32,000 nt of DNA from Sinorhizobium meliloti (GCF_017876815.1 NZ_JAGIOS010000003.1:1320001-1352000); one strand, 5' to 3'; counted from the stretch's first letter, positions 2,196 to 17,070 are shown. A program made the numbers and translations. The notes: generated from the letters alone by a model not told the origin.

Positions 2196-2321
2196 GTGAT
2201 CCAAGCGACTAAGTAGGATCCCTTAGTGGTTCACGCGAATTTCTTTAAGTCCGCAAAAATGGCACTTTGCGCGCACATCAGATCCGCCGAGGATTTGATG
2301 CCAACTGATGGAGAAAGTCTA

Positions 2322-2555
2322 ATGGGTTCCATTGATGATTTTCGCAGCAAGCTGGCTACCGACAGCGCCTTTGCAGCGGCAGTGAAGGCCTGCTCCACCC
2401 CGGATGCGATCGTGAATGCTGCCAAGGACGCCGGTATCGACCTCAGCCACAATGATCTGGCCAAGGCGATCGCGGCGGGAAGCCCGAATCTGACGGATGA
2501 AGATCTGGAGTCGGTATCCTCCGGCACCATCATGGCCGCAGCGCTGGTCAAGTAA
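2322..2555 (+). CDS. RiPP precursor peptide, Nif11-like leader, copy 1 (77 aa)
   Basis: MGSIDDFRSKLATDSAFAAAVKACSTPDAIVNAAKDAGIDLSHNDLAKAIAAGSPNLTDEDLESVSSG/TIMAAALVK. It matches the Nif11-type leader pattern (M..eqLkaF..kv..D..l...lka..tpe.vv..Ak.aGf.l...dl......LsdEeLE.VaGG). GGAG lies 8 nt upstream of the ATG. An alternative ATG 24 nt upstream (MPTDGESL..) follows GAGGA. Confidence 0.85.
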   Translation: MGSIDDFRSKLATDSAFAAAVKACSTPDAIVNAAKDAGIDLSHNDLAKAIAAGSPNLTDEDLESVSSGTIMAAALVK

Positions 2556-2570
2556 TCAGTGTGACGGTTC

Positions 2571-2602
2571 GGCCAGGTGCGTGCGCCAAGCCGCACCTGG
2601 CC
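2571..2602 (+). promoter_or_regulatory. Stem-loop 15 nt after the precursor stop (11-bp perfect stem, 10-nt loop), copy 1
   Basis: ggccaggtgcg-tgcgccaagc-cgcacctggcc. No U-tract follows, so an attenuator or mRNA-stabilising/processing hairpin is more likely than a strong intrinsic terminator. Confidence 0.5.
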
Positions 2603-2864
2603 TCTCCAGATGAACACGCTTGCTCTAATATCTTGGAGCCCGAGCCCTCCTGCTCCTGAACGAGCTTGTCGGCACTTCAAGCGCATGTCGAGAACATGAT
2701 TTTGACGAAGCCGTTCAGCGGTCCCCGACCTGCTCGGCGTGATCGAAGCGCCTAAGTGGTATCCCTTAGTGGTTCACCCGAATTTCTTTAAGTCCGCAAA
2801 AGTGGCACTTTGCGCTCACATCAGATCCGCCGAGGATTTGATGCCAACTGATGGAGAAAGTCTA

Positions 2865-3098
2865 ATGGGTTCCATTGATGATTTTCGCAGCAAGCTGGCT
2901 ACCGACAGCGCCTTTGCAGCGGCGGTGAAAGCCTGCTCCACCCCGGATGCGATCGTGAATGCTGCCAAGGACGCCGGTATCGACCTCAGCCACAACGATC
3001 TGGCCAAGGCGATCGCGGCAGGAAGCCCGAATCTGACGGATGAAGATCTGGAGTCGGTATCCTCCGGCACCATCATGGCCGCAGCGCTGGTCAAGTAA
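2865..3098 (+). CDS. RiPP precursor peptide, Nif11-like leader, copy 2 (77 aa, identical peptide)
   Basis: Same peptide as copy 1. It differs from copy 1 at four third-codon positions only (gca/gcg, aag/aaa, aat/aac, gcg/gca). Confidence 0.85.
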   Translation: MGSIDDFRSKLATDSAFAAAVKACSTPDAIVNAAKDAGIDLSHNDLAKAIAAGSPNLTDEDLESVSSGTIMAAALVK

Positions 3099-3113
3099 TC
3101 AGTGTGACGGTTC

Positions 3114-3145
3114 GGCCAGGTGCGTGCGCCAAGCCGCACCTGGCC
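3114..3145 (+). promoter_or_regulatory. Post-precursor stem-loop, copy 2
   Basis: Identical hairpin sequence to 2571..2602. Confidence 0.5.
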
Positions 3146-3406
3146 TCTCCAGATGAACACGCTTGCTCTAATATCTTGGAGCCCGAGCCCTCCTGCTCGT
3201 GAACGAGCTTGTCGGCACTTCAAGCGCATGTCGAGAACATGATTTTGACGAAGCCGTTCAGTGGTCCCGACCTGCTCGGCGTGATCGAAGCGCCTAAGTG
3301 GTATCCCTTAGTGGTTCACCCGAATTTCTTTAAGTCCGCAAAAATGGCACTTTGCGCTCACATCAGATCCGCCGAGGATTTGATGCCAACTGATGGAGAA
3401 AGTCTA

Positions 3407-3640
3407 ATGGGTTCCATTGATGATTTTCGCAGCAAGCTGGCTACCGACAGCGCCTTTGCAGCGGCGGTGAAAGCCTGCTCCACCCCGGATGCGATCGTGA
3501 ATGCTGCCAAGGACGCCGGTATCGACCTCAGCCACAACGATCTGGCCAAGGCGATCGCGGCAGGAAGCCCGAATCTGACGGATGAAGATCTGGAGTCGGT
3601 ATCCTCCGGCACCATCATGGCCGCAGCGCTGGTCAAGTAA
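3407..3640 (+). CDS. RiPP precursor peptide, Nif11-like leader, copy 3 (77 aa, identical peptide)
   Basis: Coding sequence identical to copy 2, with the same GGAG Shine-Dalgarno. Confidence 0.85.
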   Translation: MGSIDDFRSKLATDSAFAAAVKACSTPDAIVNAAKDAGIDLSHNDLAKAIAAGSPNLTDEDLESVSSGTIMAAALVK

Positions 3641-3655
3641 TCAGTGTGACGGTTC

Positions 3656-3687
3656 GGCCAGGTGCGTGCGCCAAGCCGCACCTGGCC
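3656..3687 (+). promoter_or_regulatory. Post-precursor stem-loop, copy 3, 24 nt before the first YcaO gene
   Basis: Identical hairpin sequence. It lies between the last precursor and the enzyme genes. Confidence 0.5.
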
Positions 3688-3710
3688 TCTCCAGATGAAG
3701 GGGCACCGAC

Positions 3711-4901
3711 GTGACCACTCCCGCCATCGGCACTAGAAATCGCAGGCAAGAATCAAGAATAATGACAGCATGTAACAGTTTGGGAACTTCGATTCGCAAT
3801 GTATCCGCAAGTCATACGCTTGCCGCGATCCAGCCACTTCTCGGACGTTACGACATCAGCGGATTTGCCGATCATTCGCCAAAGGGTGCAGAAACTCTGA
3901 AGTTTATAGAGGTCGTGCGCGGCAATCCGCGTTCGGGACATCTTAATCTCGGGAAAGGCTTTAGCTTCGAGACGGCACTTGCCTCGGGATACATGGAAGC
4001 CATCGAGATGAGTACGGTTGAAGGTCCGCCCGAGATCGCGTTGCATGCGCTTCCTCGATCCGCGCTTCTTTATACCGGGGGCGGAAAGCCGCCGGAGCCG
4101 GATGCGGCGCCCATGATCCGTGGCGTTGACCTGTTGTCGGCAGAGCCGGTTTACAGCCCTGTCTATGAACATTTCCTGTCGCCTGCCCCCTCGGCGCGGT
4201 CTGTTTCCGTCAACGGCTTGGCCAGCGGAAACACGGTCGAGGAAGCCAGTTTACATTGTCTCTATGAACTGATCGAACGCGACTTGACTGCCCAATCCCT
4301 CCGCGACCCGGTGCTGGTGCAGCAGCTTCTCCTCAGCGACATTCCAGCGCCCATTTCCAACGCCCTGACGGAACTGGAAGCGTTCGGACTACACGCCGAA
4401 TTCTATCTTCTGGGGCAGTTCCTCGGCGTCACTGTGCTTCAATGTGCGCTTGTAAAAACCGGATCCGGTGGCGAGGTCTATTATGGCTGGGGCGCTCATC
4501 ACTTCCGAGCCATTGCCATTTCTCGTGCCATGACAGAAGCCGTGCAGGCCTGGTGTACGCGCGAGGCATGCAGAGCGCAGACGCTTCCTCTTTCGCGCAT
4601 GCCTGGCGGGGTCATGGTCTCTGCCGAGGTTCTGAAGCTTTTGAGGGAACCTGTTACGAAGGGCGAACGTCAGTTGCGGCGGCGCTTCATCGCCTGCCCG
4701 AGCGTTGCCTATTCGCTCACCGATCAGGATGAGCAGGCACCGGCATCGCCAACGGCTGCCCTGAACCACCTTCTCTCGTCGGCGCGGGACGCCGGCATCC
4801 GTCATGTCTTTGCCTGGACGCTATCCCCGCCAGACCGTCCATTTGCCGTCGTCAAATGTGCCGTCCCCGGATTCGAAACTCCATTTGAGGTGGACGCGTG
4901 A
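3711..4901 (+). CDS. ycaO: YcaO-domain protein 1 (396 aa)
   Basis: YcaO signatures GKGFSFETALASGYMEAIEMSTVE and NGLASGNTVEEASLHCLYELIERD. GTG start is preceded by GAAGGGG (alternative ATG at 3762). Its stop overlaps the TfuA start. Confidence 0.85.
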   Translation: MTTPAIGTRNRRQESRIMTACNSLGTSIRNVSASHTLAAIQPLLGRYDISGFADHSPKGAETLKFIEVVRGNPRSGHLNLGKGFSFETALASGYMEAIEMSTVEGPPEIALHALPRSALLYTGGGKPPEPDAAPMIRGVDLLSAEPVYSPVYEHFLSPAPSARSVSVNGLASGNTVEEASLHCLYELIERDLTAQSLRDPVLVQQLLLSDIPAPISNALTELEAFGLHAEFYLLGQFLGVTVLQCALVKTGSGGEVYYGWGAHHFRAIAISRAMTEAVQAWCTREACRAQTLPLSRMPGGVMVSAEVLKLLREPVTKGERQLRRRFIACPSVAYSLTDQDEQAPASPTAALNHLLSSARDAGIRHVFAWTLSPPDRPFAVVKCAVPGFETPFEVDA

Positions 4902-6271
4902 TGGTTGTCGAGACCAACAATGAGATTGCCGTTTTTCTGGGCCCGTCCTGCTCGATTGAAGAAGCTAAAAGCATCCTGCCGGAGGCAGATTACTTTCCGC
5001 CCGCGGCTCGTGGCTCCATCTACGGTATTATCAATGATGGATACCGGATGATCGTCCTTCTCGACGGTCTGTTCTACGGACAATATTCTGTTTGGCATAA
5101 GGAACTCCTGTTCGCCCTGGATTGCGGCATTGAAGTAATCGGCGCAACGAGCATGGGTGCCCTGCGGGCGGCCGAACTGGACTGCGAGGGCGTGACCGGT
5201 GTCGGGCAGATCTACCAGTGGTTTCGTGACGGCGAAATCGATGGCGATGACGAAGTGGCTCTGCTCCACCAGAGTTCCGAGGGAGCTTACGCGCCTCTTT
5301 CCATCCCTCTCGCCAATTTGCGTTGGAATCTGCGCCTTGCCCGAAGAGAATGTATGATCGACGAGCAGCAGGAAGCGCGGATTCTGGACCATGCAAAGGC
5401 CCTGTGTTTCCAGGACCGAATGATGGAGGTCGTGCTTTCGCCGCTGGCAAAGGAACTGGATGTTTCTGGCTTGCAAAAATGGCTTGAAACGCATGGAGAG
5501 GATCTAAAAAAAAGGGATTGCTTAGAAGCGTTGCACTTTGCCGCCAGCCGGATCGCGACCCTTGGCCCCGCGCAGCCTCCCCGTCTTCGCGCCTATGAGA
5601 CGGTGCATACGCTGATCGGCATCGAGTATTTCAAGCACGAGCGGTTGAATGCCATCTGCGCAAAACGGCAAGGCAAGGCCATGCCGCTCTCGCAGTACAC
5701 CGAGCGAGTTGCCGTGGGAGATCCCTCCTATCGTAGCTATCTGCGCGCTCGCGCTTGCCAGCGCCTTATCAATGGCTGGGCTCGGGAACTTCACCTCGAA
5801 ATCACCCCGGCGCCCATTCTGCCCCAATGGTTACCCAATCGGTTTGACCTCGCTCACCGCAGGGCAACCGGCCTGACGCTAATCGACATTGCACGTGAGG
5901 GACGGGAAGCCGCCTTCACCGCAGGCGTCATCGGATCTCTCTCATCACCCGGCAGCCGCAGCCTCGTCTCCGATATTGACCGGCAACTGGCAGAGGCAGG
6001 TTTCTCGGCATGGGGCGCGGGAGCCGAAATCACACATTTGGATGGCCGCCTTGTTTATACGCTTCGTCGCCTGGGGCGCGAAAAGGGCATTTTGCCGGAC
6101 GAGAATGAAGATGCAGATACCGCCGAAGCGGCGCTCCACTACCTTGAATGGGTCTATCGCACCGGCTTGCAGCACTTCGGCTACACATTTGACGCGGCAA
6201 CCGAAATCCTCCTGGCACACCAATTTGCCGATCGACTTGACGACATTCTCGGATTGAGGGCTGCATCATGA
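4898..6271 (+). CDS. tfuA: TfuA-like protein with about 240-aa C-terminal extension (457 aa)
   Basis: The N-terminal 200 aa carry the TfuA pattern: IAVFLGPSCS..A..ILP.A.YFPPAARGSIY..., LLDGLFYGQYSVWHKELLFALDCGIEVIGATSMGALRAAEL, GVGQIYQWFRDGEIDGDDEVAL. GTG 4898 / ATG 4901 overlap the YcaO1 stop (4899-4901). ATGA overlap with YcaO2 at 6268-6271. Confidence 0.85.
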   Translation: MMVVETNNEIAVFLGPSCSIEEAKSILPEADYFPPAARGSIYGIINDGYRMIVLLDGLFYGQYSVWHKELLFALDCGIEVIGATSMGALRAAELDCEGVTGVGQIYQWFRDGEIDGDDEVALLHQSSEGAYAPLSIPLANLRWNLRLARRECMIDEQQEARILDHAKALCFQDRMMEVVLSPLAKELDVSGLQKWLETHGEDLKKRDCLEALHFAASRIATLGPAQPPRLRAYETVHTLIGIEYFKHERLNAICAKRQGKAMPLSQYTERVAVGDPSYRSYLRARACQRLINGWARELHLEITPAPILPQWLPNRFDLAHRRATGLTLIDIAREGREAAFTAGVIGSLSSPGSRSLVSDIDRQLAEAGFSAWGAGAEITHLDGRLVYTLRRLGREKGILPDENEDADTAEAALHYLEWVYRTGLQHFGYTFDAATEILLAHQFADRLDDILGLRAAS

Positions 6272-7485
6272 ATGCTGTTGAGGAATACTCACAAGGAACC
6301 CAGCGCACCTATAATCCGGAAGAGACATTGCGGAGAATTGCGCCAGCGATGCGCACCTGCGGCATCAGCCGCGTTCTCGACGTCACCCATCTCGATCGAA
6401 TCGGCATCCCCACCTACAATGCCGTGCGCCCCAATGGAATGATCTTGTCCGTGTCCAATGGGAAAGGGTGGACGAAGGCCGCCGCATCCGTATCCGCAAT
6501 CATGGAGTCGATCGAGGTCGAGCACGCCGAATATCCGGATACCTCGGCCTGGCATCTGGCTCAAAGCGCGAAGGTACTGCGAAACCGGGGATATTCGGTC
6601 GTCGATGCGCCAACGCTCATCAGCGAGTGCCTCTGGCCCTCCGATACCTATGGCGGTCTCTACTACTCAGATGATCTTCGCCTCGATTGGGTCGAGGGAC
6701 GCGAGATCATCGAGTCTCGGCCAGTCCTGCTGCCGGCCAGCACCATCTATGTACGCGCGCCTTACGTGCATTATTTCACCAGCAATGGATTGGCGAGCGG
6801 CAACACCTGGGAAGAAGCAACGCTTCACGGCATCTGCGAGTTGATCGAACGCGATTCCACGGCGCGTCTCCTCGGTCGTCCCGAGGGCATGACCACATCA
6901 CGGTTGCTTCGGATCGAGCCAAAATCGATGCCTGAACATCTCGGGCACTTCTCGGAGAAAGTGGCGCAGGCCGGAATAGAGCTTTTCATGTTCGCTCTTC
7001 CGAGTGCCATCGATATCCATACATTCTGGGCTGTGTTCCATTGCCCGGGCGAGCCCAGTTTCATGCTGGCCACCTCGGCGGGCTTCGGGTGCCATACATC
7101 GCCGCAGATCGCCGCGTCTCGCGCCCTGACCGAAGCTGCCCAGTCGCGCCTGACCTATATTCACGGGGCGCGGGAGGATCTGGGGATAGACCACGTCAAT
7201 CGTCAACTGACCTGCGCGGAGACAGAAGCGCGATTGGCCTTGCAGGCGCGGACATTTGCCAAGTTTCGGCAGATCCCGACCGTCACCTGGGATGAACTTC
7301 TGGCCGTGGCGCCACATCGTGCCCGCGGGCGTACGATCCCGGAAAGCCTCTCCATGGTGCTGAGAATGTTGAAGGAGGCCGGACACGGTCAGGTCTATGT
7401 CCACGATCTGACGAAGCGCGGTCTAGACCTGGCCGTGACGAAGGCCTTCGTGCCGGGGCTCAAGGTCAGCGCGAAGATGATTTGA
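6268..7485 (+). CDS. ycaO: YcaO-domain protein 2 (405 aa)
   Basis: Canonical YcaO N-terminus (GISRVLDVTHLDRIGIPTYNAVRPNG..SVSNGKGWTKAAASVSAIMESIEVEHAE) and NGLASGNTWEEATLHGICELIERD. No Pro-rich azoline-type C-terminal tail. Confidence 0.9.
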   Translation: MNAVEEYSQGTQRTYNPEETLRRIAPAMRTCGISRVLDVTHLDRIGIPTYNAVRPNGMILSVSNGKGWTKAAASVSAIMESIEVEHAEYPDTSAWHLAQSAKVLRNRGYSVVDAPTLISECLWPSDTYGGLYYSDDLRLDWVEGREIIESRPVLLPASTIYVRAPYVHYFTSNGLASGNTWEEATLHGICELIERDSTARLLGRPEGMTTSRLLRIEPKSMPEHLGHFSEKVAQAGIELFMFALPSAIDIHTFWAVFHCPGEPSFMLATSAGFGCHTSPQIAASRALTEAAQSRLTYIHGAREDLGIDHVNRQLTCAETEARLALQARTFAKFRQIPTVTWDELLAVAPHRARGRTIPESLSMVLRMLKEAGHGQVYVHDLTKRGLDLAVTKAFVPGLKVSAKMI

Positions 7486-7529
7486 CTCTAGTGAAATGAC
7501 GATAATCGCGCGCCGCAACAGGCTGCGCA

Positions 7530-8507
7530 ATGGAGACGACCCGCATGACCCTGGAGACAGCATCGCCCGTGCAACCGAATAGCCATCCCGGCACGCCCTT
7601 TGGTGAGATGTGGCGCGTAGCGGAACAGAACCCAGCTTATTCCCTTCTGGAAGTGCTCGATTCCATTGATCGAGACGTGTGGGACATGGAAATGCCGAGC
7701 GCCGATCAACGCGGCGTCTACGCCCGGGTGAACGGTCAGGCGGCTCTGCACCGGTTGCGGGAGGCGATGAACGGCATGGAGGCGGAGTATCCGCTCGATG
7801 CCCCGCCGCGACGCCGCCAATGGCTCGCCTCGGGTTGCTTCATGCGTGTCGAGGCGGTGCTTGATGCCTCACAGGTCCGTGAACTGGCGGGGCACTGCGA
7901 CCATCTGCTGCATACGCCCGGAATGCGCCCTGTCCGCCTGTTTGAAAACCCGCATATTCTCTCGGAAGAAGCCATAGTCGCCATAGCCCGAACTGCGCTT
8001 GCGGCTCTCCCACAGGCTTTGCCGTGCTCGGCGAGACCTGCTCTTCTGAAGAGACGAACGCTCTTGCGCCGGACTTTCCCACGGGCACAGCTTCCCGATG
8101 CGCACGGCAACGCCAATAATCAGTTTTGGCATCAGGACAGCAATCAGAAGTTCAACGATGCACCCATGATCACGCTTTGGATTCCGCTGGAGGATGGCGT
8201 TGGAAGAACCTGCCCCGGTATGGAAGTTATCGATGCGCCGGTTTCCTACTTCTCCATTTTGCATGGGGATAGTTCCCAAACCATCTGCCCAATTCTGTGC
8301 GACATGTTTCCCGGCACCCAAATTACGTCGCTGGAAGCAGCTGCTGGAGATTGCGTCATGTTCAACGGCCTTACATTCCACCAGACCGCGACAAATCCTG
8401 AGATGCGGCAGCATCGGGATGCGCTTTTGATCCGCATCATCGAGGCGGCAGATGCGGCCCATTTTGGTCCTGATGGGGCAGCTGATGGGATCGTTCCACT
8501 TGTCTAG
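7530..8507 (+). CDS. PhyH-family Fe(II)/2-oxoglutarate dioxygenase-like protein (325 aa)
   Basis: FWHQDS (HxD facial-triad motif typical of phytanoyl-CoA dioxygenase relatives) and distal LTFHQTA. An alternative ATG at 7545 has GGAG 9 nt upstream. Confidence 0.65.
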   Translation: METTRMTLETASPVQPNSHPGTPFGEMWRVAEQNPAYSLLEVLDSIDRDVWDMEMPSADQRGVYARVNGQAALHRLREAMNGMEAEYPLDAPPRRRQWLASGCFMRVEAVLDASQVRELAGHCDHLLHTPGMRPVRLFENPHILSEEAIVAIARTALAALPQALPCSARPALLKRRTLLRRTFPRAQLPDAHGNANNQFWHQDSNQKFNDAPMITLWIPLEDGVGRTCPGMEVIDAPVSYFSILHGDSSQTICPILCDMFPGTQITSLEAAAGDCVMFNGLTFHQTATNPEMRQHRDALLIRIIEAADAAHFGPDGAADGIVPLV

Positions 8508-9363
8508 CCTCGCCGTCCGCATCATAGGCGCCGGTGCAGTGGGAATGGCGTGCGGCTACCTGCTGCAACGGCGCGGGCATAAGCCACTGCATGTCAGTAT
8601 GCGTGGAGCGCCCTTGCGTGAACTGCCAGTTGCCATGCAAGGCACGGCACGCGGTCGATACCGCCCCGAAGCTGCGACACATGCTTCCCCGACGGATATA
8701 ACGCTCTTTGCTGTCGGGCCGCACGAAGTGGCCGGTGCATTGGCAACATGGGGTCAACCTGATGGGCGAAACCTTGTGTTCTGCGCTCATCCAGAACCGC
8801 AAGAAGGCGCCGTCATGGTCTTTCCGCAGATTTCGGCAGAGATTTGCCCAATGCGCGGACTTGGCATTGTGACGAGCGGCGCTGTGGAGATCTGCAACAA
8901 GTCGCAGCCTCATGCCCCTGGCCTTCTGCTGAAATTGGGCTTCAGGCTGGTACGCATGGTGACGCGGGCTCATTTTGCAGGTCGCGCCCTGCAAACGGCG
9001 GCATCTTATGTTGTGCTTCTCGCCCTCTCCCGTGGTGAGATGACCCGCGATCAGGTCTCACAGGTCTTGCTGATCGACATCATGCGGTTGCTGATGGAGG
9101 CCATGAGAGGGGCCGAAATTGCGGTCCAACTGCCGGATGGCTGTTCCCGCGCCTTCGCTGAACTGGCTTTACACATCTGCGCGCCCACTTCCGCCGAAAA
9201 TGATGTTCTCTCGCAAAACCTGGAAGCGCTGATGGCAACACCACAGCGCAAATTGCGCGGCCACCTTGCCCTCTACGAAGCGCCATGGCGGCGGCATGGT
9301 CCGGCCTCCGACGGGCTTGCGGCACGCCTGATCGATTTCGCGACATCTAAGCCCGTCCTCTAA
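8485..9363 (+). CDS. NAD(P)-binding Rossmann-fold oxidoreductase, possibly ketopantoate-reductase-like (about 292 aa)
   Basis: N-terminal VRIIGAGAVGMACGYLLQRRGH (GxGxxG) right after the start. The ORF opens at 8452 and overlaps the dioxygenase stop. ATGs at 8473/8485 or TTG near 8499 are possible starts. Family assignment beyond the dinucleotide fold is weak. Confidence 0.55.
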   Translation: MGSFHLSSLAVRIIGAGAVGMACGYLLQRRGHKPLHVSMRGAPLRELPVAMQGTARGRYRPEAATHASPTDITLFAVGPHEVAGALATWGQPDGRNLVFCAHPEPQEGAVMVFPQISAEICPMRGLGIVTSGAVEICNKSQPHAPGLLLKLGFRLVRMVTRAHFAGRALQTAASYVVLLALSRGEMTRDQVSQVLLIDIMRLLMEAMRGAEIAVQLPDGCSRAFAELALHICAPTSAENDVLSQNLEALMATPQRKLRGHLALYEAPWRRHGPASDGLAARLIDFATSKPVL

Positions 9364-9400
9364 TGAACTGTCCTCGCCCATGCGCAAGAAAGGAAATTCC

Positions 9401-9679: not shown

Positions 9680-9683
9680 GGGC

Positions 9684-10826
9684 ATGCTCAGGCAGGAACG
9701 TCTATCACGTCTACGGGAATCCTTGTCTCGGATCAGTGTCGAGGAGGCAAGACGGAAGCAAAAGGCTGGCGTCAAACTGATCGATATTCGTGACGCCGAA
9801 GAAACCGCCAAAGGCAGCCCTGTCGGCGCGGTACGCATCAGCCGATCCTTTCTGGAATTGCAGATTGAAAACGTGGCGCCGGATGCCGATACCGAGCTTA
9901 TGGTACTCTGCGCCAGCGATGCGCGCGCGCTGTTTGCCGCAGACGATCTCAACCGCCTCGGCTATTCTTCCGTTCATTGGGTCGATGGCGGATTTCAAGC
10001 CTGGGAGGCAGCCGGTCTTCCCGTTGAAAAACACCGACAGCTGAGCGCAGCGGAGAAGGAGCGATACGCGCGCCATTTGAGCATACCCGAAGTGGGGGCT
10101 GAGGGTCAGGCGCTGCTTCTGTCCAAGAAGGTGGCTCTGGTCGGTGCTGGAGGCCTTGGCTCTCCGCTGGCCTTTTATCTTGCGGCAGCAGGCATTGGAA
10201 CATTGGGGCTGATTGACAGCGACCGGCTCGAACGGTCGAATCTTCAGCGGCAAATCCTCCATACCGACGACCGGATCGGGGAGTTGAAGGTCAGTTCGGC
10301 CGCAAAATCTCTTCAGGCGTTCAATCCGGACGTAGCTCTCAATCTCCATGAGATACGGTTGAACGAGAACAATGCACTGGAAATACTGGCCGATTACGAT
10401 CTGGTGATCGACGGCAGCGACAATCTGGCGACCCGCTACGTCGTGAGCGACGCCAGCACGCTGCTTAATATTCCCATGATTTATGGCGCGATCTTCCGTT
10501 TCGAGGGACACGTTTCCGCATTTTGGCCCAATGGCCCGTCCGGTGGCCCGTGCTATCGCTGTCTCTTTCCTGAAAAGCTGCCCGCATCGCTCACTCCATC
10601 CTGCTCCGAGGTCGGTGTGCTTGGCGTGTTACCGGGCGTCATCGGGACGATCATGGCAACGGAAGCGATCAAGATCCTGCTCGGAATCGGCGATCCGCTG
10701 ATTGGGCGTTTGCTGACCTACAATGCCCTCGATTGCTCTTTCCACGACCTCGAGGTCCCCGCGAACCCCCATTGCGAGCAGTGCCAATCCAACCGGGATC
10801 TGCCACGCATGCGCGCCGGGTTGTGA
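9684..10826 (+). CDS. Rhodanese-ThiF/MoeB fusion (E1-like adenylyltransferase/sulfurtransferase, 380 aa)
   Basis: Residues about 1-115 form a rhodanese domain with an active-site loop Cys (MVLCASDARALFAADDLNRLGYSSVHWVDGGFQAWEAAG). The rest is canonical MoeB/ThiF: RYARHLSIPEVGAEGQ, VGAGGLGSPLAFYLAAAGIG, DSDRLERSNLQRQILH, DGSDNLATRY, CYRC...CEQC zinc motifs. GGAGG lies 9 nt upstream. Confidence 0.9.
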   Translation: MLRQERLSRLRESLSRISVEEARRKQKAGVKLIDIRDAEETAKGSPVGAVRISRSFLELQIENVAPDADTELMVLCASDARALFAADDLNRLGYSSVHWVDGGFQAWEAAGLPVEKHRQLSAAEKERYARHLSIPEVGAEGQALLLSKKVALVGAGGLGSPLAFYLAAAGIGTLGLIDSDRLERSNLQRQILHTDDRIGELKVSSAAKSLQAFNPDVALNLHEIRLNENNALEILADYDLVIDGSDNLATRYVVSDASTLLNIPMIYGAIFRFEGHVSAFWPNGPSGGPCYRCLFPEKLPASLTPSCSEVGVLGVLPGVIGTIMATEAIKILLGIGDPLIGRLLTYNALDCSFHDLEVPANPHCEQCQSNRDLPRMRAGL

Positions 10827-10846
10827 GCGTGGGCGGCCCTCTTACG

Positions 10847-11467
10847 ATGCTGCAAGCCTTCCGGTTTGGTGAAAGCGACCGGGACCATGTGTCCCGATTG
10901 CTGCATTGGGCGGACTTTCCCAACAGTGCACGTATTGTGGACCTCGGCGCTGGCAGCGGCGGGGTCGCGGCCCATATGGCGGCTTTGCGTCCGGATTTAC
11001 GTTTCTGTCTGGTCGATCTGGATGAAACGAAACTGGCGGCCAGTTCATTCGAAAAACACATTGCAAATATAACGCAAGTCCCAGAACCCGATGGTGCATT
11101 CGACGCGGCGATTTGCTGTTACGCAATGGGTTATGCGCCTTCGGATGCGCTATGGTCGGAGATTTCACGCCTTCTGCGACCGGGTGGCACTGTTTTTATC
11201 GTGGATATGGTGCCCAAGGATGCCACGATCCCGAAGCTTAGCCTGTTCGGCTATGAGATACGGAGCCGTGGGATGGTCGAGGAAGCGGCGCAATCTGTTG
11301 GTTTGATACCGGATGTCTATATCGAGCCGTATGATTCCGGCGATTGGGGCCGGTCCGTCTTTTCGGATGCTTTCGATGTATTCTTCGGCGATCTGCGGCC
11401 CGCCATCTGGTGCTGGCGCGCGCCCGAAACCAAGACCGTCGCTCACCCCTCGACCACCCAAGCGTGA
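10847..11467 (+). CDS. Class I SAM-dependent methyltransferase (about 206 aa)
   Basis: Motif I IVDLGAGSGGVAAHMA, post-I LVDLDE, motif II FDAAICCYAMGY, motif III LLRPGGTVFIVD. An alternative GTG at 10823 forms a GTGA overlap with the E1 stop. Confidence 0.8.
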   Translation: MLQAFRFGESDRDHVSRLLHWADFPNSARIVDLGAGSGGVAAHMAALRPDLRFCLVDLDETKLAASSFEKHIANITQVPEPDGAFDAAICCYAMGYAPSDALWSEISRLLRPGGTVFIVDMVPKDATIPKLSLFGYEIRSRGMVEEAAQSVGLIPDVYIEPYDSGDWGRSVFSDAFDVFFGDLRPAIWCWRAPETKTVAHPSTTQA

Positions 11468-11532
11468 TCGATCGACGGCATCCTAAGGTTACTGCGGCAG
11501 GGGCATAGCAGAGCGCGCATTCTGTCTGAGCG

Positions 11533-12066
11533 TTATACCAGGGCGATATTCGCCCACAGGTTCATCGCCTCGGCGAGAATTTCGCGATGATGGCTTGAGG
11601 AGCACGCCGGCACGCCGCAAGACAACATTTCCCGGTGCAGCCGTCGCTCAGTTCGAAAGCAATGACGGGGTGCCTGACCGACTGTGCCGACGTTCCCAAC
11701 TCGCCGCCGCAGCGAGGATTTGGCGCTCGCGCCACGTCTGGAACGAGGGACGACCATCGCCATTTCGCCCTCGTCGCGCACCATGTTCCGATAGTCCATT
11801 AACTCTTGCTCACACTCAAGCCACATTGCCACCACCGGCCCGGCCACGCTGTACTCTCCGGCTCTTGGCAGTACTTGACGTAGTTCTCGTGCCAAAGCGG
11901 CAGTATATCCACCGGGTCGACATCGACACCGTAGCGCTCGGCAATGGTACGGGAGTTGTCGACGTTCTCCAAAAGCGTGGCCAGGAACGCCTTGCACCGA
12001 GCCGGCGCTCCGTGAAGCGCTTGACATGCGACAGCGTGCGAAGCTGTCCAGACTTGCGTCGATCAA
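11533..12066 (-). pseudogene. Decayed gene of unknown family (protein-like stretches spread over three reverse frames)
   Basis: Reverse frames give YRNIFDRRKSGQLRTLSHVKRFTE, then FLATLLENVDNSRTIAERYGVDVDPVDILPLWHENYVKYCQE, then WLECEQELMDYRNMVRDEGE ... HHREILAEAMNLWANIALV-stop. No single frame is intact or recognisable. Confidence 0.3.
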
Positions 12067-12128
12067 AGATGTTTCGGTAGCATTCGGTAGCCGCGCTGGT
12101 ACATAACCGGGCCTCTTACTTGCAGGTT

Positions 12129-12317
12129 TCAGATTATGGGGGTGGATGTGCGTTTAAGGGTCACAGTGCCGGCCACGACTAGAACGACTTCGATGGCGAC
12201 AGTCGCAATTACGGTGGTGCCGTTCGATTGATTTTGGCCGGAGATCTCCCCTTCAACAAATGCGTCCGAGCGTGCTGTGCAATTGTTGGCGTCATCGATC
12301 GTGAAAATGGTAGCCAC
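12129..12317 (-). CDS. Candidate small ORF (62 aa) downstream of the LanM-like gene
   Basis: GTG start 2-3 nt after AGGAAG. Product MATIFTIDDANNCTARSDAFVEGEISGQNQSNGTTVIATVAIEVVLVVAGTVTLKRTSTPII. Moderate GC3 bias. An AT-rich stretch lies upstream. Not recognisable, and may be a gene fragment. Confidence 0.25.
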   Translation of the reverse strand: MATIFTIDDANNCTARSDAFVEGEISGQNQSNGTTVIATVAIEVVLVVAGTVTLKRTSTPII

Positions 12318-12468
12318 GCTTCCTGACGCTCGCCACCAGCGTTGCGAGGCCCCATAGTATTTGATTTAACATGTTCGACGAGGACAAAAGCAAAAACGAT
12401 CATATCAAAACAAATTTTCAAAACACAGCCTTTCGGCGTTTGACAAAAAAGCTTGTACTTCTGACCGT

Positions 12469-15390
12469 TCAATGGCCTATGGTCGGAAGAAGACCAGCAG
12501 AGATGATAAGGTCGCGAGCCGCGTTGGACCGCTCGTCCCGGATCTGTGCGAACCCTATACCAGCAACGCCAGTGAACAGACCGAGATGGCGTGGATCGCA
12601 GTACTTCTGGGTGTCTGAAGAGCATGGCAAATTGCCAGTTGCCTGTGCTGATGACGCGCAGGCCATCTCGACGCCGGCGGTGCCGCTGTGGATACCGGCT
12701 CCTTGGTTAGGCAGGGACGCCAATCCGATCACCCCGCGCCGGATTGCAGCATCCGCATTCGCTCGCCATTCTTGGTCATGACGCAGGCACAGGCATGTGA
12801 TGATGTGACCTGCAATGCCGCAACTCCATTCAGAACCGGCGCGAGGGCCGAAGCGCCAGAAGGCTTCCGAGCTGTGTTGAAGCAGGGATTGAACCGAAGC
12901 GCGAATGTTTGCGTTCCCTGATACATGCGCAAACTGACTGAGCGCAGCCAATACACCAAAAGCACCTTGCGCAAAGCCAGACGGTGCCGTTTCCGCCTCT
13001 CTGCTGGTCCAGTCGGCCAGACGGCAGGCAACCATCTCGGCCTGAGTGTCCGCTGTGTCGGAATTCACGAGTAGGAGCGGACCCAGCAAGCCCGCATATC
13101 CGGACCAGACATCCCAAGGCTTATCTTCGAGCAAGGCCCGATCGAGAACTGCAACCAACTGCTGCATGGCGTGCGGGATTCGATCGGCCATTATGCTAAG
13201 CCTCTGCAGTGCCGACAATGCCAGAAGCTGTCCGCCGCTGCCACGCAACCCGATGGGCAGGTCTCGCCACCACCGCAGGCGCTCAGCCGGTGTTCCGCTC
13301 TCCGCCAGCCTCAGAAGCGGCTCAGCCAAATTTTCTGCAATATGGCAGGCCTCTGGTCTTCCGGTCGCTGCAAGATAGACGGCAAGACCAAGTGTGCCGC
13401 TCACGAGCGACATTCCAAGCGGCTGGTAGCAGAACCGGATACCATCCGGCGCGAGATCGAATCCGATCCAGCCATCTGATCGACGCCTGATTTCCGATAA
13501 AAGCTGGTCTGTCGGATTGGTGATCGGTTGGAGGCTGTTCTCGCAACTCCGCCCGTGCTGCGCGAGCCGCAATGCCTTGGCCGATGCCAAAGCGTCTATT
13601 GTTTCGATCTCACGCTCGATCCTTTCGCAGGACAATGCCTCTATTCGCTCCCGGCTTGCCGCCAAGCCACTCGTCTCGAAATAGTCATCGATTCGTTGAT
13701 CGCCGGTCAGGTTCAGGGCCGTTTGCGAGACCGTGTGCGTGAATACGGGAATATCCAGTTGGCGCATTTGCAGCTTTTCAGAGGCGCATAGGCTTGAAAC
13801 GTCCTGACGATCTGCAAGCGGCGCAAAAAGGCGCTCCAGCGGATAAAGAACGTCTGCTTGGGACTGCTCGCTTCGCAATGCTTCCGCCGTCAACTGACGG
13901 CGTGCAAGCGCCGCATAGATCCGTGTCGCGCGAATGACAGCGCGCCCCTTGCAGCCGTTGAAGGCCTGCAACAGGCCATCTTCCCCCAGCCAAACGGGTT
14001 TGTTGGCGATGATGGACCTGCACTGCGCATGGAATCCGGCCATGAAGAGCTTACGATGACGGAAAAATGGATTCTTCCTGTCTGACGTTACGGGCAATGA
14101 TTGCGTGCGAACGAGCTCCCCGATCATGACGGTGCGGGCCATGTTATCCGTATTGATGGAGTGCCAGCCGGGAATTTGCCTTGGCCATTCCTGAGGCTCG
14201 ATGCCGAAAGCGCTCGTATCGACGGCATCGCGTGCGAGGCCCAGTAAGGTCCAGGCTGGAAATAGCTCGGTTCGTGCAACGGTGGTGTCGAACCAAGACC
14301 ATGCCGTCTGGGCCGCACCCAGGCTGTCCCCCGGCCGTGGACGGCGAATTGCTGGCTTCTCGAAGGGCGTCAAAAGCGTTTCGGCGTCTATAACATATAG
14401 ATGGCTGTGATGCGCCACGAGGTTTTCGTGGTGACCATCCGTGTAACCTAAAACATGCAGGAGAGCGGCCAGTCTGCCGGCACTGCGATAGAATGCCTGC
14501 AGTACATCTTCGTTGTCGCAGGGCGCGCCCTCAACAAATTCCATATAGCCATAGTCTTCTGCGCACCAGATTTTCAGCCCGGGAAGAGGTGAAAGACCGA
14601 TGCTAGCGCGCGGATCCGCCAGCAAATTCTGGAACGCCGCCTCGAGGGCGAGGTTACGGGGCTTGTAGACGAGTTTTGTCTGCCGCCCCTGCCAAGTGAA
14701 TTCCAGCAGCACGACGCTCCGTCCACCCTTATGGGTATCGCCGACAGCAAATTGCATGCCGGAAAGCGCCGCGTCTTCAGGAAGGCGGAAGTTTTGAGCG
14801 ATTGCTGTCCGATCCGCCTCGAGGCGGGCTAAAAGCTCGCGAAGATTTCTGATCCAGACTGCAATTGTGAAAGGAATCAAGCGTCGAAGGACCGGAAAGC
14901 GATCCAGCAGTTCCGCCAGATGTGTCTGCCGCAGTTCGTCTGTCAAGCGATCATAGATCTCGCATTTCGCGGCGCTCGGGTCTTTCTCCGGGGCTAATGC
15001 GGCGATGACGGACGCGCCAGCGCCACGCCGCTCTTCAAGTATTTGCTGAAGTGCATCTGCCCCCAACGCGCAAAGGCGCTCTGTCAGCGCTACAATCAGT
15101 TGCCCGATGACGGTTGGCGCCAACGCGGCTTGCGGCAGAAGCCCCATTGCGACTTCGGCCAGAGGAAACCACAGGTGAACAAAAGGCAGCTCTTTCGCAA
15201 GGCAAGGCGTTCGCGAAATGTCTTGCCTCGCCGCGAAGCATAAACCCGAGAGAAACGCATCTCCGGAACCGGCTTTCTCACGAGGCGCGCCTGTATTGCC
15301 CACCGGATCGGCAAGCTCGTCCACCAATGGCCAAAGGGCTACTATCGCCGTATTGTCTCGTGCCTCTTTTCGGATGTTTGCGTCGATCAT
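12469..15390 (-). CDS. lanM: LanM-like class II lanthipeptide synthetase (973 aa) with degenerate LanC-type cyclase motifs
   Basis: Dehydratase (DUF4135-type) signatures GDTHKGGRSVVLLEFTWQGRQTKLVYKPRNL and YGYMEFV...FYRSAGRLAALLHVLGYTDGHHENLVAHHSHLYVIDAETLL. The C-terminal repeats are LanC-like, but GFAQGAFG replaces G-x-A-H-G, EWSCGIAG replaces W-C-x-G, and GIHSGTAG (12673-12696) replaces C-H-G. Start moved to ATG 15390 (GGGAGG 9 nt upstream) rather than the track's 15441. Confidence 0.85.
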   Translation of the reverse strand: MIDANIRKEARDNTAIVALWPLVDELADPVGNTGAPREKAGSGDAFLSGLCFAARQDISRTPCLAKELPFVHLWFPLAEVAMGLLPQAALAPTVIGQLIVALTERLCALGADALQQILEERRGAGASVIAALAPEKDPSAAKCEIYDRLTDELRQTHLAELLDRFPVLRRLIPFTIAVWIRNLRELLARLEADRTAIAQNFRLPEDAALSGMQFAVGDTHKGGRSVVLLEFTWQGRQTKLVYKPRNLALEAAFQNLLADPRASIGLSPLPGLKIWCAEDYGYMEFVEGAPCDNEDVLQAFYRSAGRLAALLHVLGYTDGHHENLVAHHSHLYVIDAETLLTPFEKPAIRRPRPGDSLGAAQTAWSWFDTTVARTELFPAWTLLGLARDAVDTSAFGIEPQEWPRQIPGWHSINTDNMARTVMIGELVRTQSLPVTSDRKNPFFRHRKLFMAGFHAQCRSIIANKPVWLGEDGLLQAFNGCKGRAVIRATRIYAALARRQLTAEALRSEQSQADVLYPLERLFAPLADRQDVSSLCASEKLQMRQLDIPVFTHTVSQTALNLTGDQRIDDYFETSGLAASRERIEALSCERIEREIETIDALASAKALRLAQHGRSCENSLQPITNPTDQLLSEIRRRSDGWIGFDLAPDGIRFCYQPLGMSLVSGTLGLAVYLAATGRPEACHIAENLAEPLLRLAESGTPAERLRWWRDLPIGLRGSGGQLLALSALQRLSIMADRIPHAMQQLVAVLDRALLEDKPWDVWSGYAGLLGPLLLVNSDTADTQAEMVACRLADWTSREAETAPSGFAQGAFGVLAALSQFAHVSGNANIRASVQSLLQHSSEAFWRFGPRAGSEWSCGIAGHIITCLCLRHDQEWRANADAAIRRGVIGLASLPNQGAGIHSGTAGVEMACASSAQATGNLPCSSDTQKYCDPRHLGLFTGVAGIGFAQIRDERSNAARDLIISAGLLPTIGH

Positions 15391-15455
15391 GGCGATGCCT
15401 CCCGCACAAATCTCCCTTTCGACCCGGCAACATTTCCGCATTGACAGCTATGGAT

Positions 15456-15473
15456 ATTGCAACATGGTGCAAT
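15456..15473. promoter_or_regulatory. Palindrome ATTGCA-N6-TGCAAT in the divergent lanM-like/protease intergenic region
   Basis: Perfect 6-bp arms, 10 bp downstream of a TTGACA hexamer (15441-15446). Candidate operator, but short enough to occur by chance. Confidence 0.2.
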
Positions 15474-15494
15474 CTGAGGAATGTGGAGACATAT

Positions 15495-16682
15495 ATGCAG
15501 CCTACAATGCCGTCCTATAACTTTCTGCCGGAGGATTTCAAGGTCTATGTCGGCGCGGATGGAGGTGTGTCTTACATGCCCGGCCCGCAGCGGCAGGAGC
15601 GCACTTTGCCGACGATCAATCGTTACGGGGGGCCTGACGGTGGCTATGTCGCGGTCTGTTCGCGTGTGGCGGATCATGCTGTCTATTCCGTTGGCGACGG
15701 GATCTATGTGGTTGGCCAGATCAGGCTGCAAGGCGCCTATGAGGGGCGCTTTTTCGTGCCGAAGGGCTATGGAAGAAAGGGCATCAGCGCTGCTCCGGAC
15801 ATGAAGGCGATATGCGATCAAGCCTTTCCCGGTAGCGCACCAAACTGGGCGAGCGGCGATGCCGGCGGTTGGTTTGGTCTGCTGATCGATAAGCGGGACG
15901 TTCGCGATAAGATCCTCACGTTGGATTTGCCCCAGCAATTGCCGGAAAAGGTTGATTTGCGACGATGGTGCTCGCAGGTCCAAAATCAGGGCACCTTGAA
16001 CGCCTGCACCGCCTACGCCGCCTCGGCCATCCTGGAATATTTCGAAAATCGCGCCGGCGGAAACGCAGTGTCGCTGTCGGAAATTTTCCTTTACAAGGTC
16101 ACGCGCAACCTGATGCACAAGACGGGCGACACGGGAGCCAATACGCGATCCGTCATGAAGGCTTTGGCAGCCTTAGGCACGGTGCCGGAAGAATATTGGC
16201 CGGATGACGCATCCCAATTCGATGCTGAACCGTCTGCCTTTGCCTATGCGCTGGCAGGTCGTTATCGCTCTCTCAAGTACAGCAGGATTGATGCGAAGGA
16301 CCGTTCAAAGGACGTGGTGTTGCGCCAGGCCAAGACATTGCTCAGTCGGAACCGTCCGGTCATGTTTGGCGTCATGGCGTATTTCGGCACCTGGCAGCAA
16401 TTCGTGACGTCCGATCGCCTGCCTTACCCGAGTGAGGATGACACGCTTTTTGGCGCCCATAACATTGCCGTCATGGGCTATGACGATGGCATCACAACGG
16501 AAAATGCCAAGAACCCCGGCATCAAGACGAGGGGCGCCTTCCTCATTAAAAACTCCTATGGCGAGGAGTGGGGTGACAAGGGCTACGGCTGGATTCCTTA
16601 CGATTACCTACTGAAACATCAGTCGATTGACTGGTGGACGATCACCAAGCAGGAATGGCTCGACATGAGCGTGTTCAGCTAA
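15495..16682 (+). CDS. Papain-family (C1) cysteine peptidase with about 130-aa N-terminal domain of unknown function (395 aa)
   Basis: Catalytic motifs VQNQGTLNACTAYAAS (Gln/Cys), GAHNIAVMGYDD (His), FLIKNSYGEEWGDKGYGWIPY (Asn). No signal peptide is apparent. GGAG lies 6 nt upstream of ATG 15495. The track's upstream extension (15114) overlaps the lanM-like gene. Confidence 0.85.
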   Translation: MQPTMPSYNFLPEDFKVYVGADGGVSYMPGPQRQERTLPTINRYGGPDGGYVAVCSRVADHAVYSVGDGIYVVGQIRLQGAYEGRFFVPKGYGRKGISAAPDMKAICDQAFPGSAPNWASGDAGGWFGLLIDKRDVRDKILTLDLPQQLPEKVDLRRWCSQVQNQGTLNACTAYAASAILEYFENRAGGNAVSLSEIFLYKVTRNLMHKTGDTGANTRSVMKALAALGTVPEEYWPDDASQFDAEPSAFAYALAGRYRSLKYSRIDAKDRSKDVVLRQAKTLLSRNRPVMFGVMAYFGTWQQFVTSDRLPYPSEDDTLFGAHNIAVMGYDDGITTENAKNPGIKTRGAFLIKNSYGEEWGDKGYGWIPYDYLLKHQSIDWWTITKQEWLDMSVFS

Positions 16683-16701
16683 ATGAAAGGTATAAAATGC
16701 A

Positions 16702-16733
16702 AACCCGTTTCCGCGTGACCGCGGAAACGGGTT
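16702..16733 (+). terminator. Strong hairpin 20 nt after the protease stop
   Basis: aacccgtttccgcg-tgac-cgcggaaacgggtt: 14-bp perfect stem, followed by cttctcc (poor U-tract), A-rich on the 5' side. Confidence 0.6.
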
Positions 16734-17070
16734 CTTCTCCTGACTTTTCGTTAGCCGAGTCATCATGGTAGCCTCCTCGATGCTGGTTCCGCTGATCGGT
16801 CGAAATCCGCCGACTTAAAACCAGTAAGGAGAAAGATGTTCGGGCGTACGCGAGGGACCTTAAGCGAAGGCATGATGCGGCGGATGCGTTTTGTTGGCGT
16901 TCTCGACTTTCTGCCACGTTGAATACGAATCGTAGAGCATGGGGTAATCGCGGTGCGATCGTCCAAAGCCTTTTCGTAAGATGATGCTGACGGGGTGGTC
17001 GCCCCCGATGAGATGGAAAGACGGGCTCACGATTGGAACCGGCTAATATCAAGCGGCAGCAACCCGGGAC

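Follow-up and report, generated by a model that had tools for sequence, protein, structure and literature searches.

Organisation of the locus

The stretch of DNA considered here (the window) comprises 32,000 nucleotides from Sinorhizobium meliloti (GCF_017876815.1, NZ_JAGIOS010000003.1:1320001-1352000), in which positions 2196-16735 hold a gene cluster for a ribosomally produced and post-translationally modified peptide (RiPP). Three tandem copies of a precursor gene are followed, on the plus strand, by genes for a YcaO protein (YcaO-1), a TfuA protein, a second YcaO protein (YcaO-2), a PhyH-fold oxygenase, a Rossmann-fold oxidoreductase, a ThiS/MoaD-type sulfur carrier, a rhodanese-MoeB/ThiF activating enzyme (E1) and a class I S-adenosylmethionine (SAM) methyltransferase. 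A gene for a LanM-type enzyme (lanM, minus strand) and another for a C1 cysteine peptidase (plus strand) are divergently transcribed, with some 104 bp between them, and lanM is convergent with the operon. YcaO-1 and TfuA overlap by 4 nt at 4898-4901, and TfuA and YcaO-2 by 4 nt at 6268-6271. All of the reading frames of the cluster (11/11) are intact. The original prediction, which was based on the bare sequence, had delimited this block, named its genes and pointed out overlapping stop and start codons. Each named gene was found at its position with Pfam and NCBIfam profiles, the check with hidden Markov models confirmed all the YcaO, TfuA, LanM and Nif11 domain assignments, the overlaps are real, and the limits agree with a first repeat unit that begins at 2195 and with a palindrome (16701-16734) that ends the block. 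As also anticipated there, no transporter or recognisable immunity gene was found among the window proteins; a transporter gene, and in particular an ABC exporter or C39 peptidase gene, is neither present in the window nor conserved across the related loci.

The window is 100% identical to a megaplasmid of S. meliloti RU11/001 (NZ_CP021217), and related DNA is present on 27 of 72,556 plasmid records, all of them conjugative and from Sinorhizobium or Rhizobium. Distant loci that encode a long TfuA were retrieved by scanning 185,579 species genomes with a profile and by looking up single homologues: a Pseudomonadota metagenome-assembled genome (MAG) (L004, TfuA 50% identical), a Terriglobia (Acidobacteriota) MAG (L005, 46%), two unassigned metagenome contigs (L084, 57%, and L085, 51%) and a megaplasmid of Mycetohabitans rhizoxinica (Burkholderiales) with the full cluster (L087; CP062175, 582624-603574; 49%). 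Each of them contains a Nif11 precursor, YcaO-1, TfuA, YcaO-2, the PhyH-like and Rossmann proteins, the methyltransferase and LanM, and all except L005 also encode ThiS and rhodanese-MoeB. Protein identities in these distant members range from 31 to 73% (31-42% for LanM). The locus is, then, a real, intact and evolutionarily conserved cluster for a small modified peptide.

Precursor genes, leader and core

The precursor genes lie in three tandem units of about 543 bp (2195-3737, plus strand; repeat search and alignment), each composed of a precursor gene, a ribosome-binding site and a downstream hairpin. The genes (2322-2555, 2865-3098 and 3407-3640, all on the plus strand) code for the same 77-aa peptide, a length that agrees with the annotated orthologue of Rhizobium leguminosarum ATCC 14479 (L002), and a GGAG ribosome-binding site is located 8 nt upstream of the first copy. 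The units, spaced 543 and 542 nt, are 96-97% identical in the repeat search, and the alignment of the three copies contains only synonymous or non-coding differences; Tandem Repeats Finder returned no repeats, the 543-bp unit being longer than its 500-nt period limit. There is one copy in R. leguminosarum ATCC 14479 (L002, 8013-8246), three here and five in Sinorhizobium medicae ml29 (L086, 7279-9742), and tandem duplication of a unit of about 543 bp with almost unchanged copies suggests recent amplification of the precursor.

The peptide matches PF07862 and reaches 68.7 bits with the Nif11-leader model TIGR03798 (cutoff 32.3). The Nif11-type leader ends in LESVSSG, leaving a core of nine residues, TIMAAALVK, in which the single Thr is the sole hydroxyl residue. 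Across the family the cleavage motif is SG, TG, VG or SD and not Gly-Gly. The core consensus is T-[IVP]-M-A-A-A-L-[VI]-K, with TIMAAALVK in Rhizobium, TVMAAALVK in L084 and TPMAAALIK in L004, L005, L085 and Mycetohabitans. When 1.84 billion representative proteins were searched exhaustively with HMMER, only 27 precursor relatives came to light, and these added the cores TVMAAALIK, TVLAAALIK, TVMALALIK and TPMAITLAVK. No Cys was found in any core of the long-TfuA family that was compared. Such a near-invariant core across phyla implies one specific product and a specific molecular target. A string search of the literature with the core sequences retrieved no paper.

Downstream of each precursor gene there is a hairpin with a 13-bp stem and no U-tract. 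The third (3656-3687, plus strand) starts 16 nt past the precursor stop codon and has a folding energy of -32.5 kcal/mol (z = -4.15), with identical copies after precursors 1 and 2 (2571-2602 and 3114-3145). At the corresponding position, L084, L004 and L087 have hairpins of different sequence, and that of L002 differs by one base. This hairpin is likely a transcript-stabilising or attenuating element, and it may set the ratio of precursor to enzymes.

Thioamidation and sulfur relay

YcaO-1 (3711-4901, plus strand, likely true start 3762) is a divergent YcaO protein (PF02624, 132 bits) that keeps the ATP/Mg motifs EAIE, NGLASGN and ELIERD. Its nearest PDB sequences are archaeal thioamide-forming YcaOs, at 33-34 bits only, and its orthologues, 44-53% identical, are encoded in all full loci. 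YcaO-2 (6268-7485, plus strand; PF02624, 222 bits), which appears as the TfuA partner, is closest to the YcaOs that thioamidate a glycine of McrA (MJ1094, 111 bits) and scores 214 bits with TIGR03266 (methan_mark_1), under the equivalog cutoff of that model. Between them lies the gene for a long TfuA of 457 aa (4898-6271, plus strand; PF07812, 136 bits). The first 215 or so residues of its AlphaFold2 model (mean predicted confidence, pLDDT, 85) superpose on the Methanosarcina acetivorans TfuA structure 6xp8 with a template-modelling score of 0.85, and a fold search with the same model found no structural match in the PDB for the all-helical C-terminal domain of about 240 residues (approximately 220-457). 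This domain may, as an inference only, bind the leader. The long TfuA defines a subfamily that can be aligned over its full length. Outside this subfamily, database TfuA proteins of 400-520 aa can be aligned over the N-terminal half only, and their extensions may differ. YcaO and TfuA are encoded together with a precursor, the combination that marks thioamitide clusters, and the PF02624 and PF07812 matches bear out the earlier reading of the pair as a signature of thioamidation.

The sulfur donor appears to be encoded by the cluster itself. The ThiS/MoaD-type carrier (9380-9679, plus strand; PF02597, 33.9 bits; SAMP1-like, 43.6 bits) ends in ALAGG, and the E1 protein (9684-10826, plus strand), with an N-terminal rhodanese domain, matches NF006444 (558 bits, cutoff 449), ThiF (242 bits) and Rhodanese (45.7 bits); its rhodanese loop reads CASDAR, and two CxxC pairs are present. 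The trio of TfuA, ThiS-GG and sulfurtransferase-E1 is kept in L002, L004, L083, L084, L085 and L087; ThiS and rhodanese-MoeB are thus inside the cluster in six loci, in line with the dedicated relay that had been proposed. A housekeeping role of both proteins in molybdenum cofactor or thiamin synthesis was considered and rejected, since they are cluster-internal in these six loci of different lineages. In L002 (13046-14275) the reductase-like and ThiS frames are fused in one open reading frame (ORF) of 409 aa, and several Rhizobium records contain a 355-aa version named 'MoaD/ThiS family protein' (P0185). One report (PMC13063428, citing Liu et al. 2021) states that, outside high-sulfide habitats, a thiocarboxylated ThiS homologue and a TfuA hydrolase deliver sulfide to thioamide-forming YcaOs; by analogy, the cluster-owned relay is a known logic that is here encoded in full.

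A LanM-type enzyme with a degenerate cyclase

The LanM-type enzyme (973 aa; 12469-15390, minus strand) matches DUF4135 (296 bits), the LanM model TIGR03897 (453 bits) and, weakly, LANC_like (33 bits); its bounds and those of the C1 peptidase (395 aa) were set by annotated orthologues. The DUF4135 motifs DTHKGG, VYKPR, DGHHEN, IDAET and RAVIRAT align with the catalytic motifs of CylM and LicM2. Three motifs of the LanC domain, which we take to be the sites of the catalytic His and of the Cys/Cys-His zinc ligands (the CylM alignment agrees), read GFAQG, WSCG and IHSG in the window protein. In four orthologues the first reads GFANG, GFAMG, GFI-G and GFTKG, the second WAYG, WRHG or WCRG, and the third LFSG, LGCG or VCCG, so that the catalytic His and the zinc ligands are absent or not conserved in the window LanM and the four orthologues aligned. 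The cyclase-like domain is nevertheless full length in all orthologues compared. These degenerate motifs, together with the Cys-less cores, argue for a dehydratase-only LanM relative (predicted to be of the "LanMbC" type) and against a lanthipeptide product. The assignment as a class II dehydratase/cyclase thus stands in its first half, given the intact dehydratase motifs, and fails in the second.

It had been proposed that the cluster makes a true lanthipeptide/thioamide hybrid, in which LanM would dehydrate and cyclise the core to (methyl)lanthionine rings. The strong TIGR03897 match and the LANC_like match speak for it, ProcM-type LanMs do use Nif11 leaders, and chimeric thioamide lanthipeptides such as the nocathioamides exist (PMC8362196). 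However, none of the family cores contains the Cys that such rings require; the zinc ligands lack conservation across the five sequences, in which Q, N, M, K or a gap stands in place of the cyclase His; and the TIGR03897 match spans residues 104-861 only, ending short of the C-terminal ligand motifs. This hybrid is very improbable. A zinc-less enzyme of this kind has a direct precedent: LanMbC proteins (zinc-less DUF4135) act with YcaO in dehydrazole biosynthesis, and in one of them, CcaM, the cyclase-like domain is still needed for dehydration (PMC10676384).

Tailoring enzymes and C1 peptidase

Downstream of YcaO-2, the gene at 7530-8507 (plus strand) codes for a PhyH-fold Fe(II)/2-oxoglutarate oxygenase (PhyH, 24.4 bits, cutoff 22). 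Its H201 and D203 (the HxD motif), H284 and R296 show no variation among 31 homologues. Its AlphaFold2 model (pLDDT 88) matches SnoN, SnoK, CurA-Hal, EctD and PhyH, which are generic PhyH-fold matches only, a PDB search with the sequence alone gave nothing meaningful, and only 36 homologues are detectable. The following gene (8452-9363, plus strand) codes for a Rossmann protein that the profile of its orthologues identifies as an NAD(P)H oxidoreductase similar to ketopantoate reductase (ApbA/PanE): this profile matches the 2-dehydropantoate 2-reductases 3hn2, 3i83 and 3hwr (E of about 2e-5), and PF02558 is matched by seven of nine orthologues, the window protein alone remaining under the Pfam cutoffs. 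A homologue search with this protein gave three close relatives only. Ketopantoate reductases convert alpha-keto acids into alpha-hydroxy acids, a chemistry that fits reduction of a 2-oxobutyryl N-terminus. The methyltransferase (10847-11467, plus strand; Methyltransf_11/25/12, 38-44 bits) has orthologues, 51-61% identical, in all full loci.

The last gene (15495-16682, plus strand) encodes the papain-family (C1) peptidase (PF00112, 41 bits), whose best match among PDB sequences is the bacterial cysteine protease 3ois (83 bits) and which is a candidate leader peptidase. It recurs in L084, L091, L088 and L089.

Conservation and rearrangement of the cluster

The original prediction had named as a refutation that its two halves, the operon and the lanM-C1 pair, should never be found together in relatives. 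In fact they are linked, across phyla and in shuffled order, wherever a related locus has sufficient flanking sequence, and they form a single functional unit. LanM is encoded in 8 of 8 long-TfuA loci with sufficient flank vs 3 of about 75 other TfuA loci. Gene order and strands vary, with at least five orders among the linked loci. In R. leguminosarum ATCC 14479 (L002), which has an identical core, lanM is on the same strand as the operon, 19 bp past the methyltransferase gene. The order in L084 is C1 (minus strand), LanM, precursor, YcaO-1, TfuA, YcaO-2, PhyH, reductase, ThiS, MoeB and methyltransferase, an arrangement suggesting that a move and inversion of the lanM-C1 pair gave rise to the Sinorhizobium layout. 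S. medicae ml29 (L086) has the layout of the window, with its five precursors, an insertion sequence (IS) of the IS66 family between the methyltransferase gene and lanM, and a split TfuA.

Two observations concern the flanks of these genes. In the window, about 1 kb (11468-12468) separates the methyltransferase gene from the lanM end and contains only ORFs without family matches, and the IS66 element of S. medicae ml29 occupies the matching interval. In L084 (17017-18758), the genes directly 3' of the methyltransferase gene code for a histidine kinase and for a response regulator of the LytTR type; pairs of this kind often control peptide production.

A chance union of a YcaO/TfuA operon with a lanM-C1 pair on an IS-rich mosaic plasmid would explain why IS3, IS630 and IS5 remnants are found in the window, why IS66 separates the modules in S. 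medicae, why lanM runs opposite to the operon in the window and why Rhizobium etli NXC12 has a truncated lanM and C1 alone. The R. etli copy, however, is a remnant beside IS66, and the 8/8 linkage in at least five gene orders, with LanM identities of 31-42% in the distant members and on loci that include large contigs from unrelated lineages, therefore excludes chance juxtaposition; we give this explanation next to no credence.

A second possibility, compatible with the pathway proposed below for the family as a whole, is that the cluster is silent or a decaying relic in this particular strain. It would account for the patchy spread (27 of 72,556 plasmid records) in a rearranged region, for the split TfuA and the truncated R. 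etli copy, and for the lack of a transporter. Against it stand the eleven intact frames, the threefold amplification of the precursor with changes that are only synonymous or non-coding, and the conservation of the cluster proteins between S. meliloti and S. medicae (99-100%), so that a silent or decaying state seems improbable.

Two sister clusters (L088 and L089) contain a Nif11 precursor, LanM, C1 and a PhyH-like gene, and TfuA was not seen in them. L088 also has a gene similar to ketopantoate reductase, a zinc-dependent alcohol dehydrogenase-type gene and three precursors whose Cys-containing cores end in V[IV]K, and its LanM keeps the His and one Cys motif. L089 lies on a truncated contig; its core is TIISPVVAITTSVAIK, and it also encodes a radical SAM protein and a single YcaO. 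This lone YcaO resembles YcaO-1 more closely than YcaO-2, and no TfuA is visible on the truncated contig, a pattern that hints that YcaO-1 might do something other than TfuA-assisted thioamidation. The C-terminal Lys is common to these relatives too, their cores ending in a hydrophobic residue followed by Lys, and it may act as a nucleophile or in recognition. From these gene contents, a base module (Nif11 precursor, LanM, C1 and oxygenase, with the reductase in L088) appears to be older, the thioamidation and sulfur-relay module probably having been added later.

Proposed pathway

Taken together, the genes point to an uncharacterised RiPP pathway resembling a cut-down thioamitide pathway, whose product would be a linear thioamide peptide, small and hydrophobic, that ends in Lys, and we hold this to be moderately probable. 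The most likely product is a short thioamide peptide that resembles the tail of the antitumour compound thioviridamide, and no lanthipeptide. The steps set out here are derived from the sequences and from published work on related enzymes. The three gene copies would supply the 77-aa precursor, composed of the Nif11-type leader and the TIMAAALVK core. Rhodanese-MoeB would adenylate the C-terminal Gly-Gly of ThiS and lead to its thiocarboxylate (ThiS-COSH), which TfuA would hydrolyse, passing the sulfide to YcaO-2 and possibly to YcaO-1. YcaO would then activate backbone amides with ATP to form one or several thioamides in the I/V-M-A-A-A segment, and the LanM-type enzyme would dehydrate Thr1 to dehydrobutyrine. 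Cleavage after Gly-1 by the C1 peptidase would free an enamine that would hydrolyse to an N-terminal 2-oxobutyryl group, and the ketopantoate reductase-like enzyme would reduce this group to 2-hydroxybutyryl. The Fe/2-oxoglutarate oxygenase and the methyltransferase would add a hydroxyl and a methyl group, respectively. The calculated [M+H]+ is 917.549 for the bare core and, for the predicted 2-hydroxybutyryl product, 918.515, 934.492, 950.469, 966.447 or 982.424 with one to five thioamides, to which a hydroxylation would add 15.995 and a methylation 14.016.

The N-terminal steps have a parallel in thioamitides, in which the pyruvyl group comes from a dehydrated Ser1 once the leader has been removed; a Ser1-to-Thr mutant gives 2-oxobutyryl, natural Thr1 cores have been predicted in some actinomycetes, and in thioalbamide the reductase TaaRed converts the N-terminal pyruvyl into lactyl (PMC8153245).

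Several points weigh against this proposal. How many thioamides there would be and where, and what YcaO-1, the oxygenase and the methyltransferase would act on, is guesswork. The short match between this core and that of thioviridamide could be convergence on a YcaO substrate. One precursor relative (P0160) has a core without Thr, GVILAAALIK, and in several family members C1 is not within 10 kb. Finally, the cores of L088 start with Ala despite the presence of the gene similar to ketopantoate reductase, which weakens the assignment of the reductase to an N-terminal keto-acyl group.

An alternative is a cyclic product, in which the dehydrobutyrine would be trapped by a nucleophile other than Cys, with YcaO-1 or the zinc-less cyclase-like domain possibly assisting. 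Attack by the epsilon-amine of the C-terminal Lys would give a lysinoalanine-like link, and attack by a thioamide sulfur a methylthiazoline formed without Cys. Conservation in the core is highest at Thr1 and at the C-terminal Lys, the Lys being kept even in LanM-containing relatives without TfuA; the cyclase-like domain, which CcaM requires for activity (PMC10676384), is retained at full length without zinc ligands in all orthologues; and a second, divergent YcaO is conserved. Yet this scheme is purely inferential, neither reaction has a precedent for these enzyme types, the Lys could equally serve recognition or solubility, and the thioamitide parallel accounts for Thr1 without cyclisation. 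Such a ring is, in our judgement, unlikely. Somewhat less likely still would be a bolder version, a RiPP chemistry not yet seen, in which the dehydrobutyrine made by a zinc-less LanM would be captured by the Lys amine or by a thioamide sulfur, with YcaO-1 and the cyclase-like domain as catalysts and with a possible target in the eukaryotic host. The linear thioamide peptide remains the product that we favour.

A linear product of this type would mean that Gram-negative bacteria have a compact pathway of the thioamitide type, built on a core of nine residues and equipped with sulfur-donor genes of its own, a combination that would make it attractive for reconstituting and engineering thioamidation. 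It would also be a second natural context in which zinc-less LanM-type dehydratases partner YcaO, and a second YcaO is conserved in it. As the cluster is carried by rhizobial symbiosis plasmids and by a fungal endosymbiont's megaplasmid, the question arises whether the peptide serves host interaction or competition between strains. The cultured carriers found (rhizobia and Mycetohabitans) are all symbionts of eukaryotes, the host of L087 being a Rhizopus endosymbiont. Thioamitides have been reported to hit the mitochondrial ATP synthase (PMC8153245); with this precedent and the location on symbiont plasmids, the peptide could, if this is true, target a eukaryotic host rather than competing bacteria.

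Other features of the window

The palindrome at 16701-16734 (15-bp stem, no strand assigned), 3' of the C1 stop codon, is likely the cluster boundary or a terminator. Scans of the window for sigma-70 promoters (4 sites vs 6.8 expected) and for terminators (14 terminator-like sites vs 14.8 expected) were uninformative, and an Rfam scan of the window gave zero matches.

At the other end, a fragment of an IS3-family transposase (1873-2199) adjoins the first precursor repeat, and IS630-like and IS5-like transposase genes or fragments are located downstream (22857-23800 and 28125-28790); judged by these IS3, IS630 and IS5 pieces, the region is a mosaic. The downstream part of the window also contains a groES-groEL pair (20600-22609, minus strand), antisense to which runs an ORF of 814 aa (20477-22921) that looks spurious. 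Further on, two ORFs that resemble P450 fragments come after an intact gene for a cytochrome P450 of 400 aa (29020-31254 for the segment), with a GC content of up to 66% vs about 57% elsewhere, which suggests a separate origin. Two further genes have no obvious link to the cluster, one for a phage-type metallopeptidase-like protein (26189-26827; PF18894, 131 bits) and one for a weakly staphylococcal nuclease-like protein whose hydrophobic start looks, by eye, like a signal peptide (18110-18586).

Comparison with known systems

The original prediction knew of no described family that combines all of these genes, a statement that is outdated, as three publications precede it: a survey of TfuA clusters (Malit et al. 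2021, PMC8120280), the Desulforegula peptide (PMC9576775) and the zinc-less DUF4135-YcaO systems (PMC10676384). Its domain assignments were right, and it missed the likeness of the core to the thioviridamide tail and the thioamitide-like enzyme set. A search of the literature for the product of this family, its core sequence, the LanM link or the thioamitide link found no paper, with most subscription journals outside its coverage. Malit et al. described more than 500 TfuA clusters in Rhizobium; in this genus and in others they noted TfuA clusters with Nif11-like precursors, one Nif11 cluster having MoeB (PMC8120280). That cluster probably belongs to the same family as the one in the window, which the searchable text of their supplement does not name. 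Their survey gives no product and no core analysis, and its main text leaves the LanM link unmentioned (PMC8120280). The YcaO-TfuA thioamide natural products characterised so far come from actinomycetes (Malit et al. 2021, PMC8120280), and the only proteobacterial thioamide product found in the literature is the mono-thioamidated peptide of Desulforegula, which was produced heterologously (PMC9576775) and whose TfuA cluster is, in the survey of Malit et al., one of the clusters with a Nif11 precursor (PMC8120280).

With Nif11-leader RiPPs the cluster shares a leader that passes the curated TIGR03798 threshold and ends in the pattern LSDEELE.V..G. The hypervariable cores of prochlorosin-type Nif11 peptides contrast with the near-invariant core found here, and the GG motif and C39-peptidase ABC exporter of that class are replaced by SG/TG/VG and the C1 peptidase.

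The thioglycine system of McrA, with the TfuA/ThiS-COSH route of sulfur delivery (Mahanta 2018 and Liu 2021, as cited in PMC13063428), offers the nearest relatives of the thioamidation machinery: YcaO-2 is nearest to MJ1094, the TfuA domain matches 6xp8, and ThiS-GG and an E1 stand alongside. The substrate is, however, a folded enzyme there and a leader-bearing RiPP precursor here, and the TfuA helical domain of about 240 aa and the N-terminal rhodanese of the E1 are additions to the TfuA-ThiS route.

Dehydrazoles, represented by carnazolamide and its CcaM enzyme, have in common with this cluster a DUF4135 protein with a zinc-less cyclase-like domain beside YcaO, and no lanthionine is expected in either case (PMC10676384). 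Their azole-forming pair of YcaO and FMN-dehydrogenase and their core rich in Cys, Ser and Thr are absent here, no dehydrogenase domain having been found in the cluster proteins; the chemistry here is predicted to be thioamidation. The same study mentions a Nakamurella cluster in which the core is poly-Ala and YcaO-TfuA occurs as an extra pair (PMC10676384).

The closest parallel is with the thioamitides. Thioviridamide has the core SVMAAAASIALHC, with five contiguous thioamides, and thioholgamide the core SVMAAAATVAFHC (PMC10125368); the start of the core, [S/T]-V/I-M-A-A-A, is shared with the cluster and is part of the poly-thioamidated stretch in thioviridamide (SVMAAAA...). Thioamitide clusters encode YcaO and TfuA, a C1A protease (TsaK), of a type called rare in bacteria, an Fe/2-oxoglutarate oxygenase (TsaJ) and a SAM methyltransferase (TsaG) (PMC8153245), and, matched by enzyme class, YcaO and TfuA, the C1 protease, the PhyH-type oxygenase, the methyltransferase and an NAD(P)H reductase are present in both. 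Residue 1 is dehydrated in thioamitides and is predicted to be so here, leading to an N-terminal keto- or hydroxy-acyl group. The differences are equally clear. This cluster has no C-terminal Cys, no His and no LanD-type decarboxylase, and would therefore not form an aminovinyl-cysteine (AviCys) macrocycle; profile scans found no flavoprotein-decarboxylase domain in the eleven cluster proteins. Phosphotransferase domains like those of TsaC/D/E and HopA1-like lyase domains were not found among them either, the DUF4135 LanM-type enzyme being present instead. A Nif11 leader, a second YcaO and in-cluster ThiS and rhodanese-MoeB are found here, and the hosts are Pseudomonadota and Acidobacteriota, not Actinomycetota. 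The system is thus a truncated thioamitide-like pathway that stands outside the thioamitides in the strict sense.

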